Of a stretch of DNA of 64,000 nt, positions 1,301 to 57,949 are shown piece after piece. Every line of letters begins with the position of its first letter. The stretch's first letter is position 1. The notes beneath the pieces were generated by a model. It did not search any database. It saw only the letters and a list, made by a program, of their open reading frames with translations, and had not been told where the DNA came from. A program made the position numbers and the translations under genes. This DNA is from Glaucostegus cemiculus (taxonomy: Eukaryota). The stretch is from NCBI GenBank assembly GCA_976551045.1, contig CDPCPM010000073.1, positions 26,474,001-26,538,000 on the forward strand, given 5' to 3'.

Positions 1301-2264
1301 GGTGATACAAACTAAACATGGAAGCATCAAAGTAAGAGCACCTTAGTTATTCTTTCATGTAGTAATGTTTGCTGCCTCACTTGGAACATAGCTGCAGTGT
1401 TTCCCCCTAGGGACCATTAAACATATCCTTATCTTCAAGTATCAAAAGATTTGGTATTTAAAAAAAATTAAAATTAATATTGATGTGCATTTGTGAGCTG
1501 TGATTATTTGAGAAGCTTGTATTTTTAATGAAAACATTTTGTTGGTAGCGAAGGTAATTGTATTCAGAGAGAATTGTTACTGTGTTGAAGGAGGTCTTAC
1601 AGCCTGTTGAATCTGCCAGAGTTATCCCTCAGGTTCTTCTTATAGTTCTGCTAATTCTTTCTTTTGGCATACTTAGCCAACCCTATTTTTGAATGTTGTA
1701 ATTTAATATGCTTCCATTCCAACCCCAGCATTGCATTCCAATCCCTAACCCACTTGATACATGTTAAAAGCTTTTCCTCATCACAAAATTTGTTCTTTTG
1801 CCAAACATTTTCTTTCTGTCATTGGGACAGTTTCTCTCTATATAGGCATGTCTGTGCTCTTCATGGCTTTACATTTGTCAGATCCTTCCCCCAATGTCCC
1901 CTCTTCCAAGGATAGCAACCCCAGCTTCTCCAATCTATCTACGTAACTAAAACCAGATATTTTAAAAAAAGGATATGTAAACTAAAAATGAAAAATGCTG
2001 GAATCACTTAGGTCAGGCAACATCTGTAGAAAGAGTAAGAGCTGATGTTTTTGGCTGAAGACAACAGAGGCCTGCAGAATCTTTCCAGTATTTTCTGTAT
2101 CTGCATTAGTAAATGAGTTTGGGGATGAAATCCATTTTAGTAAATCACTTCTGCACTCTATTAAGTTCTTATGTTTTTCCTATAGTGTGGCACAATTGTG
2201 GCCAAAGTATTTTATAAAGGTTCATTGTCACTGCCTTCCTCTTGTACTCCACCTCTATTGATAA

Positions 2265-3097
2265 TGTTACGAAGTAGCTTACTACCGGCAAACGTCCCTT
2301 TAAGAAGGACGTTTTTTGTGTGTGTGTGTGCCTATAAGACCGTATCACGTCAACAGAAGATAAGATGAACGTGATGAGGTCATTAAGAGAAAAAAGAGAG
2401 GGGGGAGAGAGAGAGAGACAAACAGACGGAGAGAGACAGAAGGGAGGCACGGCAGCCTGTTTTGTTTCTGTCGATGGATGAAGGACAGTAACTGTGTTTG
2501 TCACTACAATCCACGGATGGATTTCTGGAGTAGTCCAGTGGAGTCCACTTTGTCGGTAACCTGTAGAAGAACACAGGTGTTTGCGTGGATGACCACATTT
2601 TGGATGCTCTTCAGAGTGGCAGATAAGTGACAGAATTCGCTTTGCTGCTAACCTGTAGAAGAACACAGGTATTTGCATGGACAGTCACGATCCAGGAGTT
2701 TTTGGGGTGAGAACGTTACTACCGAGTAAGCCCTGAAGTGTCGTTTGAATTCTGAGTAGAACATTCAGATTTCGTGATTCCTCTCTAAGTTCTCTCTATA
2801 TTTATGTTTTGTCTTCGGTGGACGGTGCTTGTGAAGAAGCCTTTATTCGTGTTTCATCTTACGGCTTATTGAACTGAACTTTAAGAACTAATTCCTGGAC
2901 TTGGAGTTTAGGAATTTGCCACACACACACGACGAGTAGTTTTTGGGGTTACAGTTTAAGATTCTAATATTTTGTATTGTACTAATATACTAACTTTTTG
3001 TTCTTATTTACGTATGATCGGAAGTAGTTATTAATAAAAGTAGTTTTAACACTGAAGTATGACTTGGTGTGCTTCTTTTGTTGCTGGGTTCGTAACA
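2265..3097 (+). mobile_element. Complete LTR (833 bp), probably Gypsy-type
   Basis: Termini TGTTACGAA...TTCGTAACA; AATAAA 3033-3038 plus GU-rich tract near the 3' end; internal 33-bp direct repeats at 2557-2589 and 2649-2681; CpG-rich relative to flanks. Confidence 0.8.
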
Positions 3098-3107
3098 GAA
3101 TTTGACT

Positions 3108-3460
3108 TTCTCACCCCGAAAACTCCTGGATCGTGACTGTCCATGTAAACACCTGTGTTCTTCTACAGGTTACCGACAAAGTGGACTCCACTGGACTACT
3201 CCAGAAATCCATCCGTGGATTGTAGTGACAAACACAGTTACTGTCCTTCATCCATCAACAGAAACAAAACAGGCTGCTGTGCCTCCCTTCCGTCTCTCTC
3301 CGTCTGTTTGTCTCTCTCTCTCTCTCTTTTTTTCTCTTAATGACCTCATCACGTTCACCTTATCTTCTGTTGACGTGATACGTTCTTATAGGCACACACA
3401 CACACACAAAAAATGTCCGTCTTAAAGGGATGTTTGCCGGTAGTAAGCTACTTCGTAACA
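3108..3460 (-). repeat. Inverted copy of the LTR 5' half (matches 2265-2713, lacking 92 bp)
   Basis: Reverse-complement match by eye with few substitutions; ends CTTCGTAACA followed by ATAA. Confidence 0.95.
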
Positions 3461-4549
3461 ATAAAGCCCAGTATACTGCACTCATTTGTAAAATCTGTGG
3501 TCATCCTGGTCTGTCACTTTTTCCAACAGAGTATGTACTTATGTGCCCAGTTCTGTCAGTGTAGCCCTTTTAGAATTATGTCCTCAACTTTATACTGCTA
3601 CTCACTCTTTCAATCAAAATGTTGCATTTCACATTTCTCAGCACATTTTTTTAAAGCATGTATAGTTTTAGTATATTCTTTGCTCATCCACTGTTCTGTA
3701 ATGCATGAGATCACATGGCAGTTTACTTTAGGCTGGCTTGTAACCATGTGAAAGCAAGACGTGTGTAAATTTGAGATTATTGAAAACAGCTACTGCTTTG
3801 ATTTGATTTTTATATTTGAGGCAAGAAGGAATGAGTTTAGGCTTAAACTCTGGTACATCTGATAAATGCTTAAAGCAGCACTTAGTAAATTGGGCTGGAG
3901 AATATTGATCTTTTGAACCTGTTGTAAGGACTAAGACTGGTGCTTAGTTATTTCATGAGGCTTGGTCCTTAAGCATTGATTTCCAATATCAGGTTTTGAC
4001 AGCTATGTTTTATAAGAGTTTTGGACTAATTTCTTGATCTCAGTATTTCATTCAGTTAGTGCTGTGTTTCCCAAGCTGATGATCATAATCTCAAATGGCT
4101 CATACCATTAGCTGATGGGATTGGATCAAGGGGCCCCATTGGTTCTGACTTTGGCTCACTTCCCTTGTTAAGCTGTCAAACCACCCTTGATGTTGGGCGG
4201 CCTTTGTGGCCTGCATAATTTTGAGGCATGGTAGTGAAGTCTTCTCATCTACTCAGTTCAGCACTGCAAGTAACGATGTCTGCCTCTAGCTCTACTAACT
4301 CTTCCTTGCAGTTTATTGAGAAGCCTCATTGGGGAGAAGGAGAAGGGGAACAAAATCCTGCCCACCTACTCCGCTGGGCAGCAGTAGTCTTTGAGAGTAA
4401 TGAAGGAGTCTTGAACTCTTGCCCATTACTGAGAGTCACGTCCTCTTGACAGGCTGGAGTGCCTGTTACTGGGAATTGTAACATGCAAATTTGCTGTTGT
4501 CTATGTGTACAGTTAATGAAATTGATAAATCCAAATGTTACCAGGTGTG

Positions 4550-9829: not shown

Positions 9830-11310
9830 TAATTAAATGAGTATTTTGCATCAATCTTTAGCATAGAGAATACAAGTAACATCCTTAAAATAGCTGCAAA
9901 TTGGAATGTGGGACAGGAATTCTGGGGGAAAATCATAATTACCACAGCAGAGGTATTATGAACATTGTTGGATCCGTGGGCTGACAAGTCTCTGGGATTT
10001 AATGGGTCTTAAGAGAAGTAACTAGTGAGATAGTTGATTGATTGTGTATACTTTTCAAAAAATTCCTGAGATTTGGGGAAGTTTCCATTCGATTGGAAAA
10101 TAACAAACTTAACTCCTTTATTCAAAATAGGAGGTAGATGCAATGCAGGCCATTAATCTTAACATCTATCATTGAGAAAATAGAAGCTATTTTTAAAAAT
10201 GTTAATAGCAATACACTTGACATCAGGTTAATTTGACGTGGTTTGTGAAAGGGAAATTATGTTTGACTAATTGTTCTTTGAAGTAATTTGCTGTGAATAG
10301 AGGAGAATAGGTGGCTGTACTGTACTTAGATTTCCAGAAACTATTTGAAATCGTTTATTGCAGAAAATAAAAACTCATACTGTCAGAGATGATGGAAGAT
10401 TGGCTGGCTAATAGGAAACTGAGTAGGCTTAAATGGGTCTTTTTCTGGTCACATGATGTAACGAGGGAACAGTGCTGAGGCCCTGGCTTTTTATGTGTGT
10501 ATGTACAACTTGGATAAAAAGATTGAAGTTCGGCTTCTAAATCTGCTGATGACACAGAAGTAGCGAAGTTGTATTCAAGAGGAGGCAAAGAGGTTACAAA
10601 AGTATATGGATAGGAAAAGTGAGTGTGCATGGATCTAGAAAATGGAGTAAAAAGCAGTAAAATGTGAAATTGTATATTTGTCAGAAAGATAATGCATAGT
10701 ATCTAAATAGTGAGAGGTTACAGAGCTCCAAGTCTTAGAGGGATCCAGTGTCCTAGTGCTAGTTTTTAGGTATAGCAAGCTGTTGGGAAAGCTAACAATG
10801 TTATTTATTGCAAAGGGAATTGAGTACAGAAGTAGAGAGGTTATACTTCAGTTAACTCGGACATTGGTGAGACCACATCTGGGCCCTGTCTTCAATATTA
10901 GTCGTCTTATTTAAGGGTGGATGTTAATGTGTTGGAAGCAGTTCACAGAAGATTTACTGGACTAATACCTGGAAAAAGAGTGGTTGTCTTCAGAGGAAAG
11001 ATTGGAGAAGTAAGTCTTGTATCTGTTGGGGTTTAATGAGTGAGACAGAATGAAGGCATAGGAAATCCCGAGGGGTGTTGACAGAGTGTGGAAGAATTAG
11101 GAACTAGGGTCACTGTTTAAAATAAGGGATCTTGAATTAAGACATGCAGGATGCTTTTTTTTTCCTGACGATCCTTGGTCTTAGGAACTCTCCTTAAAGT
11201 CTTTGAATGTGGAGTTGAGGTTGCAGTCAGATCATTTGTGATCATATTAAATGGCAGAGCCAATTTGGCAACCATTTGAATGGTTACTCCTGCTCCAATC
11301 TCTCCTCTGA
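9830..11310 (+). mobile_element. Decayed CR1-clade LINE (RT region to 3' UTR)
   Basis: Recognisable motifs: tgtacttagatttccagaa (YLDFQK), gctgatgacacaga (ADDT), gtgagaccacatctgg (VRPHL); many indels. Confidence 0.75.
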
Positions 11311-11498
11311 AGGCAACCACACTGTATGTACTTCATTGGATTTTTATAGCAGTATAACTTTTATTTAAAAAATGACCAAGTTTGAAATTAGTTTTTTAAA
11401 ATTTAACTTCAATTTAAAATTTAATTTCAAGGGCAATATTATAACCAATACTGTACCTGTTCACACATTCTTTTACTGTTGTGTGTTTCACATTTTAG

Positions 11499-11662
11499 GA
11501 TTGACATTGCGACAGCCGATCAAGACAATTTAAAGTATCCTTTGGCCAGGGATCGGGGCAATTCTGCCTCATACGGATTGCATTCTACCAGTTCTGCCAG
11601 TGTGCCTCGACATAGACACGATGACATTCGAATCCTTGCTGGATTTCAAAATGAAGAAGGGG
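11499..11662 (+). CDS. SMG1: SMG1 exon 2 (164 nt)
   Basis: ttttag|G...G|gtaagg; IDIATADQDNLKYPLARDRG...FQNEEG. Confidence 0.9.
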
Positions 11663-11989
11663 GTAAGGCCAGCTTAAAGCTTCAGTAATTTTCCACTCTG
11701 TATTCCTATACTGCATCATTGAATTTGTTTTACAATATTTTCTTGTGTAAATTAAAATTGCTTTATTCTCCAAGTATATCATAATGCTTCTATTAAGTAG
11801 ATTTGTAAATCATCCACCAGTGAATGCACAGATTAATCTCATGGAGTTCTACATTTAAAGAGAAAAATCTGCCACAGAATTTCAAATTGGTGTACTAATG
11901 AATATTGTGAAATGAGAATGGAATGTATTGAAAATCTGAACATGTATAACTGTCAAAAGATCAAGAAAAGAGGGTAATTTGCCTAATTT

Positions 11990-14239: not shown

Positions 14240-15360
14240 TGATAGAATTGTACATCACAGAAATAGGCTTTATGTCCCACCATGTCCATGCCACCCCTTG
14301 ACCACTCTACACCAATCTCATTTAACCACATTAGGTCCATAAACTTGTATGCCTTGGTGATTCAAGTACTTGTCCAGATGCTGCTTAAAGGTTGTGAGTA
14401 TCTGCCTCCACCATCTCTTCAGGCAGCACAGTTCAGCTTCCAAATGCCCTCTGTATGGGGAAAAATTCCCTTCGGATCCCCCTGCAGCCCCATCCCACTC
14501 ACAAACATATACACTCTTGTCTTTGACACCCCCACCAAAGGAAAAATATTTTTTATTGACTACCCCATCTATCATAATGTTGCATACCACTATTGGGTCA
14601 ATCCTTGGCCTTTTCCATTCCAGGGAAAGCAAACTGAGCCTATCCAGTTTCTCCTTCTAACTGTAATGCTGTAATCTAGGCAAGGTCCTGGTGAATCTCT
14701 TCTGTACCCAATCCAGCGCAATCACACTCTTCCTGTAGTGTGGTGCCCAGAACTGCACACAGTATTTCAAAGGTGGCCTGAGTGATGTTTTATAAAGTTG
14801 TAATATGACGTCCCTACTCTTAAATCCTCTGCCACGGCCAATGCAGACAAGCAGCCTCCACCACCTTGTCCACCTGTGCTGCCACTCTTTTAGGGATTTA
14901 TGGACTTCTACCCCAAGGTTCCTCTGTTCATCAACACTTCCTAGGGTGCTACCATTTATTGTGCGTATCCTTTTGTTTGACTTCCTGAAATGCATCACTT
15001 TGCACTTGAGGATTAAATTCCTTCGGTCAGTGTTCTGCCCAACTTCCCACCTGATCTTTATCCTGTTGTAATCTTGGACAGCTTTCGTTGCTATCTACAA
15101 CATCACCAATTTTCATGTCATCTGCAGATTGCTTATCGTACCCCTGTAGTACACCACTCATCGCAGACTTCCAGTCAGAAAATAAACCCTCTACCACCAC
15201 CCTGTGCATCCTAGCACCAAGCCAATTTTGGATCCAATTTGCCAGCCTGCCCTGGATCCCATGGGCTCCAACCTCTGGACATGCCTACCATGTGGGACTG
15301 TATCAAAGGACTTAAAGTTCATGTAGACAACATCTACTACCCACATTATACTTCCTTACC
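14240..15360 (-). mobile_element. CR1-clade LINE, 5'-truncated, decayed
   Basis: Minus ORFs: KSRDVILQLYKTSLRPPLKYCVQFWAPHYRK...QKRFTRTLP; RVVVEGLFSDWK...SGVLQG...ADDMKIG. Confidence 0.88.
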
Positions 15361-17998
15361 ACCTCAAAATTGTTATGGAGTGTTTTCAGGATTGTGTGCT
15401 TATGCTCTTTAATTCTGATATTAAATCATTTGTGTTTTGTGCATCTCTACTCAGAACATTATAAGTGTAAGGACTGATATTTGTATTATTTGGAAGCATG
15501 AGTTTTTCCCACTTGCTCCAGTAATTAAGGGCCACTGATAAAATGACTGCTCTGATTCTATAGTTAACTGGTATTTTGGCAGTGTCTCAGTGAGCAGCAG
15601 AGTTGTACAATGATCCGTCCTGCCAACGTGGAGGAAGGAATGCTTCCTTTCATTCAGAGGCAGATTTTAAATTTGAATGTTACCTTGCTGGAGTGCATAC
15701 ATTCCTGACTCTAGTATGGATTACAGCATGCAGTTTACTGGGTATTGCATTATTAACATAATTATGTTGTTTCATTGTAATACAGGATATGCAGAAGTTG
15801 CTATCCTTTTAAGGGAGAACTATTATCCCATTAGACACCCAGACTATTTCAAATGAAACCTAAAACCATTGGTGGAATGTTGTTTCTGTTGAATGTCTAT
15901 GGTAACCAAGTATTGAGATGAATAACTGGAATGCCAACTTTAGCTTAAACCAAGCTGGCACAAAGAAGTAATGATGCAACATAACTGCATAGGCACACAC
16001 AAATTGCAAGTGCCAGCCTGAGCGTTTGCCAATGTCAGTTTTGAGATGCTGTGCATCATTATAAAAGCTTGCCATTTGAAGAACTTTTTTTTGTGGCTTA
16101 TAAATTCTTCTCATTAACTTTTCTCCCCCTTCCAACTCCACCCTTCCAAAAAAAAATCTGTAGAACAGTTTTTATAAAGATAATTTGGGATTAAGAAATT
16201 CCACTATAGAAGAAAAATAATGCTAGAAAGGGTGCTGTTGTTGCCTCATGTTTGAAATAGGACTACACTACCATTATATAAAATACTGATCTAAGGGTCT
16301 GCATCAGACCTCGGGCAAAGATCTGATAGTGGAAAGAATCTAAACATAGTCATTCAGTAACACTCTGACTTGGATTTTGCTGAATGTTGGTTATTGCCAG
16401 CCTCCACCATGAAGCATGGTAGTTGTGCATGTACTTACCTGAATTATATCAGCATACTGAATAAGCTGATCAGTAAATTGGAGTCGAAAATAGTTAGATC
16501 CTGTGTGCCGATAGGGCCCTGCAAGCAAAACTGATTTACATAGGCAAGCCAGGAAGCAACTCACCCAAACACTGAGAGGACCTTTGACATTCTGTGGAGT
16601 GATGTCCTTAGCTTTAGTATGAGTAAAAAATGAAAATGCTGGAAATATTCAGCAGCTCAGGTAGGCAGCATTGGTGGAAAGAGAAACAAAGTTTGTGCTT
16701 CAAGTTGAAGACCCTCCATCTGACTTCCAGAATTTTTTTTTGATTTTCCCCAGCTTCACTGTTAGTTACACTTATTAAACATTTAAACACTTAATTGAAA
16801 TATTTTAAAAGTTGAATTGCTTAAAAACATGAATTGTGTTTGCTTTCATGTTTAGATTTGGATAGGAGAAACACCATTGGCTGGGAGGATGCAATCTTAG
16901 ATTTTTTTGTTTGTTGTAACTTGAAGTGTTCATGTTTCAATTTTATGGTTACAAGTAACAAAAAATAATTTAAGGTTGTTTAAGATTAATAATTTTGTTT
17001 TAGATCTGTAATTTTCTTAGTTTCCTGGGGAATCCCACACTTTTATTTGATGCACAATGTAATTTCAACATCAAACGACCCAGCACAGTTAAATTCAGAT
17101 TAAATCTGCAACTGTGTGAACTAACCCCTCCAACTCCTGAAGAGCATCACAGTTAAGACTGTTGTTAGGGTTAGGACTGAATGTTTGCGAAGTCGATGCA
17201 GGCATACTAGAAATGTGGTTCAGACTGCCTGAATTCATTTAACAAATAGTGAATTTTTTTATGCTGAGTAATAATAACGTACAGACTCAGTGTAATTTGA
17301 AAAACGCTCCTATTACCAACCCATTTCTATTTCCTTTTCTAATTACATCAACTGTCTTGTCTTCGATCACCAGAACCTGGGTTCAGTCTAGTTTAACTCA
17401 TTTCTAATAGCTTGTTGCTGGCAGAGAAGACTGACTTTTAAATTTGATGCCCTTCTGAAGTACAACAACTTGCTTCTATCTTAGCTTTATTAGTTAACTT
17501 CCACACCTGAAAATAAACCTCATTTGCTGAAATTTTTTTTTTCAGTTTGCCATTTTATAAAAGTGACTGAACTGATGGTACTGACTTCTGTTACGTTTGT
17601 CCTTGTAACAATACCTTCAATCCTAGAGAAAACGGTATTTGTCTTGTCTGAAAGAGGAATTTTAGAAAATTGGGAATTTTCTTCCAAAAAAATTATTTAT
17701 AGCAGATTCTTCTGTGTTAAGAATAGTTTCTTTTAGAAAGCAAACTTACAGATGGTTAACAATTCCTTGTGCGAGCAATAAATATTTTCCTTGTGGAGAA
17801 GAAATGTGCTCCAAGGTGTACAGGTATAATTTTCTGTTCTACAATGGAGTGGGATTGTGCTAAGCTGTAACATGTTTGTTTAAAAACAAATGATCTTAAA
17901 GTGCTGTATTGTCCATCTTATTTTAACAGTAAAGATGAGCAGAAGGAAGGTCACCACAGTTTTTGCTATCTGAGCAAATGTGATGATTTTCTTTACAG

Positions 17999-18151
17999 GC
18001 AGATACGATGTCAATGGAGGACTTGGTGAAAATGCTTATGGTCGGAAGTCGCTGGGGCAAGAGCTGAGGGTTAACAATGTGACCACTGATGTAAGCAGCA
18101 TTCAGCATGGGAGTCGTGCTTTAGCCACAAAGGAGATGAGGAAATCACAGG
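17999..18151 (+). CDS. SMG1: SMG1 exon 3 (153 nt)
   Basis: ttacag|...|gtaagc; RYDVNGGLGENAYGRKSLGQELRVNNV...MRKSQ. Confidence 0.95.
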
Positions 18152-19025
18152 GTAAGCATCTAGTTAAAAATTACTTTTACCCAGAAAGGTATTCTGCAAA
18201 GCATCCTGAGTGCTGCAAATAGCCTATACAAGCATGGGTGAAATTAAAAAGAAAATTGAGGGCTGAATGCATGACAACATTGGGAAGTAAAGTTCATATT
18301 TTAAATGGATGTTGGAGCACAAATTTGCCGCAGTGATTAAAAATCAAAAGAATCAAAGATGCCGCAATTATAAATATTGAGAATGCTGGAAACACTCTGA
18401 TCCTCCTTCTACAGATGTTGCCTGATCTACAAAGTTAATGTTTCACCTCCTTTGTCAGAACTGGGAAATAGAGTAAGCAAGTTGGTTTTCAATAGCTGAG
18501 CTGGTTGGCAGGGATGAGCAAAGGGAATATCTTTGAGACCAAATGAGTGAATGTGGCAGTTAGAATCAGACTATGCCACAATGATATCTGGACCAAGTAT
18601 CAGATTATAAGGACTAGTTTCATAGAGCAGAACATCTATTCCTTTGTATGTAGAAGACTTCAAAGGTGATCTGTTTGAAGATGGAAGAGCTATAAGAGGT
18701 GGGCAATCTGTCCAGATAGTAAAGTCCAAAATGAGGGCATAACTTTGAAGTTGGAACAAGGCTTTTTTTGAGATGATGTGCAATAGTACTTATTTACATA
18801 AAGGATAATAGAAATTAAGTCACCAGCCTCACTAAAAAGTAATCAAAATTGATACATTTTAATTAATTTTGTTAAATTTTGTAGGGGAGGAGGAGGAGCA
18901 CTGGGGTAAAAGCACTGAACAGCCATGATCTAAATGGTAGAATTGGGTAAAGAGACTGATTAGCTGTCTACACTTCCTTTGGTTTTATTCAACTTTTTTT
19001 TTAAACTACTTTTTGCTTGTTATAG

Positions 19026-22869: not shown

Positions 22870-23645
22870 CAAACAAACAATTTTAGATTGAGTGTGCAGA
22901 AAATTGGCAGATGTACAGTACAGGGAAGTGTGAAATTGTCCACTTTGTCAGGAAAAATATAAAAGCCTATCTAAATGCTAAGAGGTTAGAGGGATCTGGG
23001 TATTCTAATGCATAATTCACAAAAGATTAGTAAGCAGGTATAGCAAGTAATTAGGAAAGCTAGCAGTGTTATTTATTGCTAGTGGAATTGAAAATAAAAG
23101 AAGGCAGGTTGTGCTTCACTTGTATCCTATCTTGAGTACTGTATACAATCTTATACCTTTATTTAAATAAGGTATTGAAAGAGTTTAAAGAAGGCTTACT
23201 AGATTGAAGTCTGGAATGGAAAGGTTATCTCTTGAGGAAAGGCTGGACAGGCTAGGCTTGTATCTGCTTGAGTTCAGCAGAGCAGAATATATTGAAATGT
23301 ATAAGATACTGAGAGATGTTGATGGGGTGGATGTGGAGAGCATGTTTTCTTAGGTAGAAGAATCCTAGAAGCAGAGCCCACAGTTTTCTAAAATAAGAGA
23401 TCACCTATATAAACATAATGATTGGAAATCTTTTCTGAGAATTGAAATTCTGGAATTCTTCCTCAAAAGGCAGTAGAAGCAGACTCTTTGAAGTTTTTTA
23501 AGGCAGGGCAGATAGGCTCTTGACAGGCAAGGGTGTGAAAAGTTACCTTGGGTAAATAATGCAGGATTGAAGTTGCAATCAATTGCTTGTGATCAAATTA
23601 AATGCAGGCTCTAAGGGCCGATTGGTTGGCCTACTGCTAACTTGT
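22870..23645 (+). mobile_element. CR1-clade LINE 3' fragment
   Basis: aagtgtgaaattgtccacttt (KCEIVHF), agagggatctggg (RDLG), cttgagtactgt (LEYC); same family as 9830-11310. Confidence 0.75.
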
Positions 23646-27912: not shown

Positions 27913-28603
<691 letters not shown>

Positions 28604-30005: not shown

Positions 30006-30612
30006 TAATTTTCAATAATTGAATATTAGAGTTATCGTTTTAAATGTAACAAGACTAATAAATCTAAAAAAATCATAAATTGTATACATAAAATGGACTG
30101 AGGAATCTTACAATCCAAGTTAGATCAGTGACATTTCAGTTTAAATTGTAGTTACTTGCTATTTATTCATTTGACCTGAATTTACACTAAGGATTTTGCA
30201 ACTTAGTTTTACCGTTGCATGTCTTTGTTTTCTATTTGATTGTTAGGAATTTGAATCAACCAACATTATAAAAATTGGCAAAGAAAATCTTCCATTAGAT
30301 CTAAGATGAAAACATGCTAGAAGTACTCAGCTCTATAGCATCTGTGCAAATAAAAATCAGTTTGGGTTTATGACTTTTCATCAGAATAGGGGAAAAGTTA
30401 GAGGTAACATGCTTTAGGAAGTGAAGAAGGGGAGTAAATGCAAAATAAGGTCTAATGAGGTGGAAATCAGGAGTAGATAACAAAATTGATGCTTCAAGGC
30501 AAAAGAGGATGGTAAAGGGATGAGAAACCAGATCAGTCTAGAGATGATGCAAATGGGAGAAGTAAGGTAATGAACTGAAATTCATCATTAAATGAATTTC
30601 ATGAAGGAGTCA

Positions 30613-30723
<111 letters not shown>

Positions 30724-32858: not shown

Positions 32859-33428
<570 letters not shown>

Positions 33429-44938: not shown

Positions 44939-45292
<354 letters not shown>

Positions 45293-45307
45293 TAAAACTA
45301 ATATTAA

Positions 45308-45469
<162 letters not shown>

Positions 45470-46406
45470 TAAGTGTGTGAGTGATTGTTTTTAAAGTATT
45501 TGATCTCCCAATTACATCCAAATGGATTGGGAGTGGGGAATAATTTTAAATTCCCATATGTCACATACTTGATTATGTAAGAACTTCTTAATTGATTATT
45601 GCGTAGAAGCAGAATTAGTTGAATATGTGTCTGCGATTCTGCCGGAGGAATTAATGTTCCAAACTTTGGGGTGGAGGGTGGGGGCAGTTGGAGAAAGTAC
45701 AATTATAGCAACTGATTTACGTAGTTTTCATTCCACAAATATGTCTGTTCTGGATTGTTTCCCTCAAATATATAATTTTGAAGGTGCAGAATTGATTCAC
45801 TTGAATGGGAGCAAAAGCTTCAGTTATTTAAAGAAACCAGAGTTGTTATTCTGAGGGCAGAGAAGTTAGAGGCATGTCACAGGTTACTCAGGGTTATGAT
45901 GAAGGGAAAAAAGTGCATTTTAGTGACACAGGAATTGGTAGCCAGGGTACACAAATTAAATTAGAGTAATTAAAGGAACCAGAGGTGTGAAGAGAATATT
46001 TTAGACATTGAATTAGGATTCCAATGCACTGCCTAAGCATGGATGCAAGTGTTAAAACATGTTAATTGAATAAATGTATGAAGAAAATTTTGGCACTGGA
46101 GAGGCAGGTAGATTGGCCTATTTAAATGCATCTTTCAAAAAGCCAGCAGTGGCGTGATGTATCAAATGGTCTTCCTCTGCTGCATCATCCCACGATTCTT
46201 TCACTGGGGATGTGGAAATACAAAATAACTTGAAGTTTGTTTTGTTAACAGGTACTATGTGCAGAGCAAAATTTATCATTTTATTCCATAAATTAATGTT
46301 GGTTCACTTATTTGTACTAAAGAAAAATGTATTTTTAAAAAATGAATAATATGTTCAGTATGGTATCTATGATTCATGATCAGTCTTTGGTTGTACTTTG
46401 ATACAG

Positions 46407-46545
46407 TCAGGGTGAAGGTGTCCCACTTCTGGCCAGAGAAAAGACAGAAGTTCAAAATCTACTTCCAGAAAACACATCTGAAGAAGACAGAGAAACAATT
46501 TATGGAATTTTGGGACAAGCTTTGTGTCGACCAACAGGAATTCAG
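46407..46545 (+). CDS. SMG1: SMG1 exon 33 (139 nt)
   Basis: atacag|...|gtgaaa; QGEGVPLLAREKTEVQNLLP...GILGQALCRPTGIQ. Confidence 0.94.
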
Positions 46546-48939: not shown

Positions 48940-51260
48940 TTAGCAAGGACAGGCAAAAGATGGGATGTAGCACATAAGGGAGATCATCTGTGCCATGGTG
49001 AGAAATGATCTGTCAAGCAAGATCATGATGCAGATCCTAGAATCAACTTGTGTTGAGCTGAGAAGTAGCAAGGGCAAAAAACATTGATAGGAGTTACTTA
49101 TAGGCCAAAAGGTAGTTGAAATATTGGGTGTGGCATAAAGTGGGAAGTTAAAGGTGTTTGTGTTATGAAATACAATAATCATGGGAGACGTTAACTTACA
49201 CACAGATTGGACAGAACAGACTTAAGAAGGTGCAAGGTGAATTCATGAAATGTATGTGATGCTTTCTGGATCAATATACTGAGGAACCAACTGGAGGAAA
49301 GACTATATTGGAACTCGTTTTGTGCAATGAGAAAGGGTTAATTAATAATGTTGTTGCTCATGGGCTTTTTGTTGAAGAGTGAATGTAATAGTTTTACATT
49401 GAACTTGAAAGGAGCTCAATGCAAAAGTAGGGTTTAGCAGTAACCAAAGAAAACTAAGAAGGCATGAGGAGAGAATTGGCTGTGGTTGGTTGGAAGAATA
49501 TGCTTCTGTCTCTTGTCATAATTTTCATTTGTTAGCTTTAAAAGAAGTGATGCACAGGTTGTAAAAGAAATAGTTCTGTAAGGCACAAAAAATAGGAAAT
49601 GTAATTCATCCAAGGCTGACAAGAAATTAAAGATGGTGTTAAATGCCAGAAATAGCCTGAACATTGGGAGCATTTTAGAACTTGGCAAAGGAGGTCCAAG
49701 CAATTAATAAAGGCTAGATAACGTGAATTGACAATCAAGAAACATAAAATGGACTTGATAATTTTGGTATATACTAGTGAGGATATATGTGGGCCCCTTG
49801 CAGAAAGAGGGAGGAGAATTTATAATGGGGAATGGTAGAGGAAATAATTACTTTGAGATGGCTTTCCTGGAAGAAGGTGCATAGCACCTGCCAGATCTAT
49901 TAGAGAATCAAGGATTGGGAACTAAAAGAAACACGTGCAAGTTAAAGATTAGAATTGGATATATCTGTGAACTTGAGGGAAAATGCTTGAATCTTTAATG
50001 AAGAATGTAATAACAAAGCATCTGGAAGAAATCATAGAACTGAATAGAGCATTATGGATTTTGCAAGCAAACTTATGTGTGACTAATCTGGAGTTCTTCA
50101 AGCATGTGTCTAATAGAATAGGTATAAGGGAACCAGTGGATATGGTGTATTTGCATTTTTGGAAGGGATTTAATAAGGTCCTGTATGGGAAGTTGGTCAG
50201 CAAGGTTAGAACACATGGCATCAAAGGTAAAATACTGACATGGATTGAGAATTGGTTATTGAACAGAAAGCAAAGGATGGGAATAAATGGATCTCAGGAT
50301 GCAGGCTGTGACTATGCCAGGAATCTGTTCGTGAGGCCAGCAGTTCATGATCTATATCAACGATTTGGCTGATTGGACAAAATATCATATTTCCAAATTT
50401 GCTGAAGATAAAGTACATGGAGTTGAGTATGAAGGAGGACTTAAAGAAGCTTTGAAGGTATGGACAATCTGAGCAAGTGGGCAAGAACATGGCAGATAGC
50501 CATTAAACAAAATGAGAACTTACTCTCTTTGGTACGCATGACCGAAGTGGCATATTTATTAAATGATGGGAGATGAAGTAGTGTTGATGTTCAAAAGGAT
50601 CTGGTACACTTGAACACAAGTCGCTGAGCACCAGCTTATCAGTAAGTGATCAAGAAGGCAAATGGTATGCTAGACTTTATTACAAGAGGATTTGAACAGA
50701 GGAATAAGGAAGACTTATTGCAGTTGCGCAGGGGCTGGGTGACACTGCACATGGATTATTGGGTATAGTTTAGGTTTCCTTGCCTAATACGTGCTATAGA
50801 GGGATGCAGCAAAGATTCACTGGGCTGGTTCCAAAAATGGTAAGTTTGCTGTTTGGGAAGAGATCAGGTAAACTGGGATTGTGTTCTCTTCGGTTAAAAG
50901 CATGATGGGAGATCTCAAGCAGAATACTTGAAAGCGCTTCATAGTCTTGATGCTGAGAAGATGTTTCCCCTGAGTAAGATGTTTAGAACCAAGGGATATG
51001 GTTTAAGAATTATTATGGGTCTGCTGTTTAGGACTGAGATGAGGAATTTCTTCAGGGTTGTGAACCTTTTGAATTATGTACCAGAGGTAGCTGTTGAGAC
51101 TCAGTCATTGTGTTCATTCGAAGCACTTTTTCTGGATGCTAAAAGAAGTATGGGTTATGAAGATGGTGTTAAATAATGGGATTGAGGTAGAAGATCAGCC
51201 ATGATAATGTATCACTGGCTCAAAAGGCCAGATGCCCACCATCTGCTCTTTTTTTTGTCT
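48940..51260 (+). mobile_element. Decayed CR1 LINE with endonuclease and RT remnants
   Basis: IIMGD.NLH.DW (~49175); ORF 49983-50372 ...PVDMVYLHFWKGFNKV...HGIKGKILTWIENWL..RKQR; 3' UTR to ~51250. Confidence 0.85.

Positions 51261-57616: not shown

Positions 57617-57949
<333 letters not shown>

Follow-up and report, generated by a model that had tools for sequence, protein, structure and literature searches.

A complete LTR and, attached to it, an inverted partial copy of the same LTR lie under one insertion scar and occupy 1196 bp of the window, by which we mean the whole 64-kb stretch of DNA that was analysed. This odd composite structure is real, and we regard it as probably an unusual, single aberrant LTR product. 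Its parts follow one another in the order ATAA, LTR, spacer, inverted partial LTR and ATAA, around a unique middle of approximately 390 bp; position 2265 opens with TGTTACGAAG, TTCGTAACA closes the LTR at 3097, GAATTTGACT fills 3098–3107 and CTTCGTAACA closes the inverted copy at 3460. The features of the element and its target are as follows.

2133–2260, minus strand: left flank, from the downstream portion of the target, a decayed CR1-type LINE ORF2 fragment in antisense orientation (tblastn blocks colinear with the proteins P0002/P0003; limits approximate)
2261–2264, plus strand: left target-site duplication ATAA (one copy restores the CR1 frame)
2265–3097, plus strand: complete LTR of 833 bp (arm A plus a unique 3' half), without coding, PBS or PPT sequence (rGmr1 and Sushi end motifs, an AATAAA close to the 3' end, a 3' half rich in T, CpG observed/expected ratio)
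2265–2273, plus strand: 5' short inverted repeat TGTTACGAA, putative integrase att site (perfect 9-bp complement of 3089–3097)
2541–2681, plus strand: internal direct repeat in U3, with 49-nt cores at 2541–2589 and 2633–2681 that are 84% identical at a spacing of 92 bp (one unit absent from arm B)
2797–2804, plus strand: candidate TATA-like element from a motif scan, with a second candidate at 2333
3033–3038, plus strand: AATAAA polyadenylation signal, the only AATAAA in the element, followed by a stretch that is G/T-rich in composition
3089–3097, plus strand: 3' short inverted repeat, the natural U5 end, now internal (9-bp complement of the 5' repeat)
3098–3107, no strand: junction spacer, 5–10 nt long depending on how much of the imperfect pairing between 3103–3107 and 2714–2718 is counted as arm
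3108–3460, minus strand: arm B, an inverted copy of 2265–2713 from which one 92-bp repeat unit is missing (identity in 341 of 351 aligned columns)
3461–3464, plus strand: right target-site duplication ATAA (4-bp match to the left copy)
3465–3553, minus strand: right flank, from the upstream portion of this CR1-type fragment (colinear tblastn blocks, P0002 residues 37–62; limit approximate)

The coordinates, the size of 1196 bp and the ATAA at both sides that the original prediction had given were all reproduced from the sequence. Its reading of ATAA as a true 4-bp duplication for the whole composite also holds, as 4 bp is the only match among lengths from 3 to 8 and the interrupted CR1 reads through best with a single copy. 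By chance, the middle region would be expected to hold the internal 9-mer end about 0.004 times, and the flanks to match over 4 bp with an expectation of about 0.005–0.009. An ordinary solo LTR would have its target-site duplication abutting both LTR ends; here positions 3098–3101 read GAAT and not ATAA. The segment 3108–3460 had been described as the reverse complement of 2265–2713, and it is indeed an inverted copy of this part of the LTR, but not a full one (353 against 449 bp): it lacks approximately 92 bp, equivalent to one unit of the internal repeat at about 2580–2671, and carries two microsatellite indels. BLASTN matches to the element in the 64-kb window consist of its own arms and internal repeat, with no other copies.

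The claim that removing the insert restores a continuous antisense CR1 was examined by rebuilding the empty site with no, one or two copies of ATAA and comparing each version with CR1-type database proteins. With one ATAA the junction reads CSILGFINRG against CDVLAFINRG of the CR1-type protein P0002 (7/10 identical, ungapped), and the best local scores against this protein were 43 with one copy, 23 with none and 27 with two, in agreement with the claim. The next colinear block (VEYKRK..., P0002 residues 69–84) is reached through a minor frameshift some 9 nt away from the junction. Among the four database proteins compared only P0002 discriminated clearly; P0003 scored 22/21/23 over the three versions, and P0004 and P0005 were uninformative. 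The CR1 copies within the window are too diverged for the equivalent DNA test, in which the best tile scored 77/76/76 and the other tiles had no consistent preference for one copy. The support for one target site consequently consists of one good comparator, P0002, together with colinearity on both sides. This suffices to conclude that both flanks are one CR1 and that nothing beyond ATAA was gained or lost at the junction; the one-copy read-through indicates that the composite fills one target site.

The larger component has the hallmarks of an LTR-type element, as had been proposed. Its two ends (2265–2273 and 3089–3097) form a perfect 9-bp inverted repeat, and they fit the motifs of rGmr1 (TGTNANR/CGTNACA) and Sushi in Table 3 of PMC3601003, which lists integrase end motifs for rGmr1, Sushi and gammaretrovirus-like LTRs. 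The AATAAA stands 59 nt before the LTR end, the bases that follow it (3039–3097) are 41% T and 25% G, and the 3' half of the LTR is likewise 41% T. The fish Metaviridae solo LTRs rGmr1 and Sushi, as described in PMC3601003, share with it the TGTNANR...CGTNACA termini, an AATAAA near the 3' end, a T-rich body and a comparable length (833 bp here, a mean of 695 for the rGmr1 training set in that source); they differ in that here an inverted partial LTR stands between the U5 end and the target-site duplication. The duplication of 4 bp lies within the 3–6 bp range given for LTR elements in PMC10045372; the papers listed for fish rGmr1 elements offered no data on primer sites or target-site duplications. 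The element is thus putatively of Gypsy type (Metaviridae, rGmr1/Sushi-like), an assignment made from motifs and not from proteins, the locus having no internal region. Of the 83 reading frames scanned, the seven that overlap or adjoin the element had no Pfam match, and Rfam gave none in the window at the gathering score. A gammaretrovirus-like ERV LTR was considered and rejected, the 5' att motif TGWAGNMRR listed for this group (PMC3601003, Table 3) being unmatched by TGTTACGAA.

The LTR is young relative to its surroundings, judging by its CpG observed/expected ratio of 0.82 against 0.18 in the rest of the window, and the two arms of the composite appear to have aged in place. They differ at 10 of 351 aligned columns, and seven of these differences fall at CpGs; differing columns make up 7/32 of the CpG columns and 3/319 of the non-CpG columns (Fisher p=3e-6). 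CpGs have been lost on both arms, four on B and three on A. Such CpG-biased differences point to methylation-driven decay in the genome and not to a fold-back read, and the non-CpG divergence of 0.9% (3/319) implies that the arms were near-identical at the start. An artefact of assembly or of a chimeric read, whether a fold-back read or merged haplotypes with the LTR in opposite orientations, is conceivable insofar as inverted repeats are hard to assemble; we consider it scarcely credible here, with a CpG bias and a repeat-unit deletion that are unlike read errors, one colinear CR1 with an exact target-site duplication on both flanks, and no N in the window.

The original prediction held that this DNA had integrated through two identical U3-type ends. 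U3-type sequence does stand at both outer ends; use of these ends as U3 is not demonstrated by it, the terminal 9 bp being common to both ends of the LTR. Because of this identity the scar cannot tell which ends were integrated: the last nine bases of the composite could just as well be a normal U5 end, and the first nine that of a copy on the minus strand, so that a normal U3/U5 insertion that was rearranged later would leave an identical scar. In vitro, Ty1 integrase uses a pair of separate identical oligonucleotides, both U3 or both U5, for concerted integration and prefers U3 (PMC8487063), which makes U3/U3 integration enzymatically unsurprising and calls for no new enzyme. That reaction resembles the present case in that two identical LTR ends are joined to opposite target strands; it differs in that PMC8487063 describes short oligonucleotides and a Copia-type enzyme, whereas here the joining is deduced from a fixed genomic product.

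We tentatively favour a one-off event in which an LTR copy of plus-strand DNA folded back upon itself and was integrated by two U3 ends, as one quite possible origin; taking it jointly with a variant built from two molecules, we lean slightly towards the pair. All the likelihoods given here are judgements and not computed values. Reverse transcription would release an LTR-sized plus-strand copy (strong-stop DNA comprising U3-R-U5 and a few bases), the 3' end of which would pair weakly with the same strand near 2713–2718 and prime synthesis as far as the strand's own 5' end, with one unit of the 92-bp direct repeat lost during this extension or later. Reverse transcriptase can delete direct repeats and strong-stop DNA can carry extra bases. 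The hairpin would then be made double-stranded, or be paired with a second LTR end at integration and subsequently unfolded and filled, and integrase, seeing the same terminal 9 bp at either type of end, would insert it into the old CR1 and duplicate ATAA. The unique middle of about 390 bp may keep the inverted repeat stable, and neutral CpG decay of both arms would follow the insertion. A single event of this kind is economical because it explains together why the junction falls exactly at the U5 end, why internal retrotransposon sequence is missing, and why there are near-identical arms, intact outer ends and a single target-site duplication. The suggestion of a one-off fold-back cDNA accordingly stands as the single most economical mechanism, with the reservation that conventional routes leave the same scar. 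No precedent for the second-strand step was found in searches of the open-licence literature. Rearrangement after a normal insertion, be it by template switching, same-site insertion or nesting, is in total a serious rival, rated as high as the fold-back itself.

The joint between LTR and spacer sits exactly at the U5 end of the LTR, and every model must account for it. Several properties of this joint speak against fold-back: a canonical tRNA primer site is lacking from the spacer (no TGG occurs in 3098–3110), no stretch of the LTR pairs with it as a self-primer better than shuffled sequences do (95–99% of shuffles are as good for 10–11-mers and 21% for the 18-mer), and pairing at the turn is poor, with a mismatch at 2714/3107 and, in the next four positions, three Watson–Crick pairs and one G–T pair. 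In some fish Gypsy elements a few bases separate the LTR from the primer site, and the spacer could also be the native start of the internal region. Self-priming fold-back along the Tf1/Tj1 route finds no support, the duplex energies of the spacer being no better than those of shuffles; in the Tf1/Tj1 elements, as described in PMC4600332, the primer site is complementary to the LTR and provides a built-in fold-back point, whereas no such complementarity was found here. A derivation of the spacer from 2714–2753 by deletion was dismissed, by eye, for its several mismatches and a gap within about 11 nt.

The spacer together with the last six bases of the LTR matches 2627–2639 in the same orientation at 11 of 13 positions (p ~0.02, uncorrected, one of five words tried), which hints at templated or end-joining filler. 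Filler of this sort would be expected if the composite were a two-molecule or tail-to-tail dimer product, to which two cDNAs had each given a U3 end in one integration reaction while end joining linked the U5 ends left free; the left copy would keep its U5 end and later become a solo LTR, while the right copy would be cut short by resection or by an asymmetric central deletion. Such a course accounts for the exact U5 junction, the filler-like spacer and, if the source copies were two, the 92-bp difference between the arms. Concerted integration of separate donors has been achieved in vitro (PMC8487063), and perfect palindromes in mouse and in cells are quickly stabilised by asymmetric central deletions, as reviewed in PMC8701086. 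The palindromes stabilised in this manner resemble the composite in their inverted arms and one-sided unique spacer; those described in PMC8701086 are transgene concatemers, whereas here integrase-type ends and a target-site duplication bound the structure. We nevertheless judge the two-molecule route rather unlikely on its own: it needs the extra steps of solo-LTR formation and a large one-sided loss, the three non-CpG differences between the arms demand near-identical donors, and no in vivo case was found among the open-licence papers listed.

The crossover of the 92-bp difference maps to the right-hand 5–10 nt of the repeat homology, and this right-hand end is the one that fold-back synthesis would enter first, which weakly disfavours a deletion at that stage. 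The same position suits copying from the LTR start inward, as would take place in a host template switch on an ordinary ATAA-flanked solo LTR, in which, during replication or repair, the nascent strand would jump from one of the 9-bp end repeats to the other, make an inverted copy of about 350 nt from the 5' part and return at the LTR end with filler. The starting state would be ordinary, the 9-bp repeat would provide microhomology at one of the switches, near-identical arms would be expected, and the window contains another local inverted copy, at 30599–30682 (84 nt, with 95% identity to 28011–28094 in SMG1 exon DNA), so that such insertions do occur there. We hold this course to be unlikely, as the return has to land exactly on the LTR boundary and the inverted copy is about four times longer than the 84-nt example, whose own origin is not established.

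Normal U3/U5 integrations would suffice if the right-hand ATAA of a first copy had received a second one, tail to tail, to give a near-perfect palindrome, which then lost its centre along with the 3' part of the later arrival. The centre of the palindrome would then be exactly 3097, the junction, and centre-break revision is documented in PMC8701086. This is improbable, since it needs a hit at the same site and in the same register of a large genome without a demonstrated target specificity for the LTR family, and the tandem LTR structures of rice described in PMC11899658 are direct arrays sharing an LTR. To be equally doubted is a nested origin, whereby a minus-strand LTR (B) would have been inserted first with the ATAA duplication, a second LTR (A) would have entered its middle in the opposite orientation, and a deletion between direct TGTTACGAA repeats would have removed the 3' half of B. 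The junction at the exact end of A would then be an integrase joint, the 92-bp difference would be subfamily variation, and the 9-bp repeat would allow an exact deletion; arm B has lost slightly more CpGs (4 vs 3 sites, not significant). Three events are needed, however, and B would have to diverge from A after 2713 even though the arms are 97% identical elsewhere; A itself offers no such match (7/10 at best on the minus strand).

It had further been suggested that the element may belong to a non-autonomous, LTR-derived family with terminal inverted repeats (TIRs), moved as DNA by a Ginger-like transposase or by Gypsy integrase. The comparison with the Ginger1 and Ginger2/TDD elements of PMC2836005 stands for the TGT-type termini, the 4-bp target-site duplication and the long terminal inverted arms, and fails for the target sequence and the TIR length. 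Both ends read TGTTA and agree with the TGTNR termini of Ginger1 and Ginger2, a motif which is shared with Gypsy LTRs and is not diagnostic. The target ATAA, in the context GATAAA/TTTATC, fits neither the CCGG or CCGT/ACGG target reported for Ginger1 nor the RTATAY target reported for Ginger2/TDD; the 4–5 bp duplication of the latter agrees in length and not in sequence, although a single site set against a preference is weak evidence. The arms, at 449 and 353 bp, exceed the TIRs of approximately 40–297 bp listed in PMC2836005, and in contrast to the elements described there the composite has no transposase and has visibly LTR-derived arms with a U5 end and a poly(A) signal. A Ginger element is therefore rejected on target, arm length and lack of a transposase.

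TRIMs such as Helenus and tandem LTR arrays (PMC10886601, PMC11899658) are likewise short, non-coding LTR structures under one target-site duplication, which for animal Helenus is of 4 bp, as here (PMC10886601). The LTRs of the TRIMs and arrays described in these two sources are direct and accompanied by PBS and PPT, with tRNA-like LTR sequence in Helenus, whereas here they are inverted, with neither PBS nor PPT and no RNA-family match; this type of element was rejected for its inverted repeats, the lack of a TGG primer site and the zero Rfam matches. With inverted instead of direct end repeats, no PBS or PPT and a poly(A) signal in the middle, the composite cannot retrotranspose as a unit, and any family would need to be mobilised at the DNA level in trans.

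The TGTNR ends, the 4-bp duplication, the long inverted arms and the lack of coding capacity are compatible with such a family, as is the origin proposed in 2010 for the TIRs of Ginger1 from two oppositely oriented LTRs (PMC2836005). The misfit of target and arm length argues against it, as does the retention of a whole LTR complete with internal U5 end and poly(A) signal, and no second copy exists in the window, which at 64 kb is far too small to exclude a family; we rate the idea as very improbable. A scan of the window for TGT..ACA elements with target-site duplications returned 13 candidates including the composite. The next best, at 45212–46517, has its ends in SMG1 exon-like sequence and was taken as chance, and the 11 others have repeats of 6–7 bp. 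A 22-nt pattern spanning the LTR end and spacer had no exact match in bacterial and archaeal genomes, and the element had none among plasmids, results that exclude contamination and have no bearing on a eukaryotic family.

No description of a comparable composite (inverted LTRs with a target-site duplication, two U3 ends, or an LTR-derived TIR family) was found among the open-licence papers listed, as judged by title or the opening of the abstract. As a one-off, the element preserves an unusual LTR product in clean fossil form: its integrase ends are intact, its scar is exact and its target can still be read. It shows that identical LTR ends facing outward, which have been proposed as the raw material of Ginger TIRs, can arise and persist as a pair in a vertebrate genome, and annotation tools that rely on TIRs plus target-site duplications would misfile the composite as a DNA transposon. 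Were the family to prove true, the element would be an extant intermediate in the transition from LTR retrotransposons to Ginger, which is only hypothesised in PMC2836005, and strong-stop fold-back would be a recurrent route from LTR elements to MITE-like derivatives; recurrence of the junction at other loci would make the LTR-element origin of cut-and-paste transposons directly testable.

The plus strand of the window encodes SMG1 (Pfam matches to SMG1_N, SMG1 and PI3/4-kinase), and we take the window's repeats to resemble those of cartilaginous fishes. The composite lies upstream of the first detected SMG1 exon, which opens after a splice acceptor near 11500, and no CpG island was seen within the window upstream of this exon; both observations suggest an intronic position, and the element probably resides in an early SMG1 intron in the sense orientation. 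Transcribed as part of such an intron the composite would form a long RNA hairpin, for which none of the results suggests a function; the predicted fold of the top strand contains 346 arm-to-arm pairs.

Within the U3 (5′) region of the complete Gypsy-type LTR, positions 2541-2790 hold two diverged repeat units at a spacing of 92 bp; alignment of the sequence suggests that a third, very degenerate unit is possibly present in the same interval (alignment score only 8), and the number of units may vary among members of the LTR family. The poly(A) signal of the LTR (3033-3038) is oriented sense relative to SMG1. In transcripts it would fall within the loop of a highly stable predicted RNA hairpin formed by the composite of the LTR and the inverted partial copy of its 5′ part, for which the predicted MFE is -784 kcal/mol, a value without a shuffle control at such length. 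This region is a possible candidate site of premature polyadenylation or RNA editing.

The scan of the window for other TGT..ACA elements also returned 45212-46517, with an apparent 11-bp inverted repeat and a 4-bp flank repeat; we take it as a chance match, since each end falls within sequence resembling SMG1 exons and the flank word on its own reads as a palindrome.

Most of the window is taken up by the SMG1 gene (+ strand, 11425-63076), with additional exon-like frames extending to about 63000.

Pfam matches in SMG1 (frame, strand, match)
11425-11685, +, SMG1_N
17974-18219, +, SMG1_N
32859-33428, +, SMG1
57617-57949, +, PI3/4-kinase

An 84-nt inverted copy (30599-30682) of SMG1 coding-exon DNA (28011-28094), 95% identical, lies in an intron 2.5 kb downstream of its source exon and adjoins a SINE-like tail. 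It has the appearance of a locally templated insertion, or else of a short retrocopy in antisense, and its flanks gave no clear TSD.

The window starts with the 3′ end of a LINE-like element (1-680), CpG-rich (o/e 0.53) and apparently young. A Pfam search of it gave no match; we presume it to be L2/Rex-like. Further decayed CR1-type fragments occur elsewhere, each spanning the same ORF2 C-terminal region.

LINE-like features
3-449, open frame of the LINE-like element
near 672-685, its short tandem-repeat tail
10768-10853, decayed CR1-type fragment
14660-15094, -, decayed CR1-type fragment
23036-23121, decayed CR1-type fragment
49977-50372, decayed CR1-type fragment
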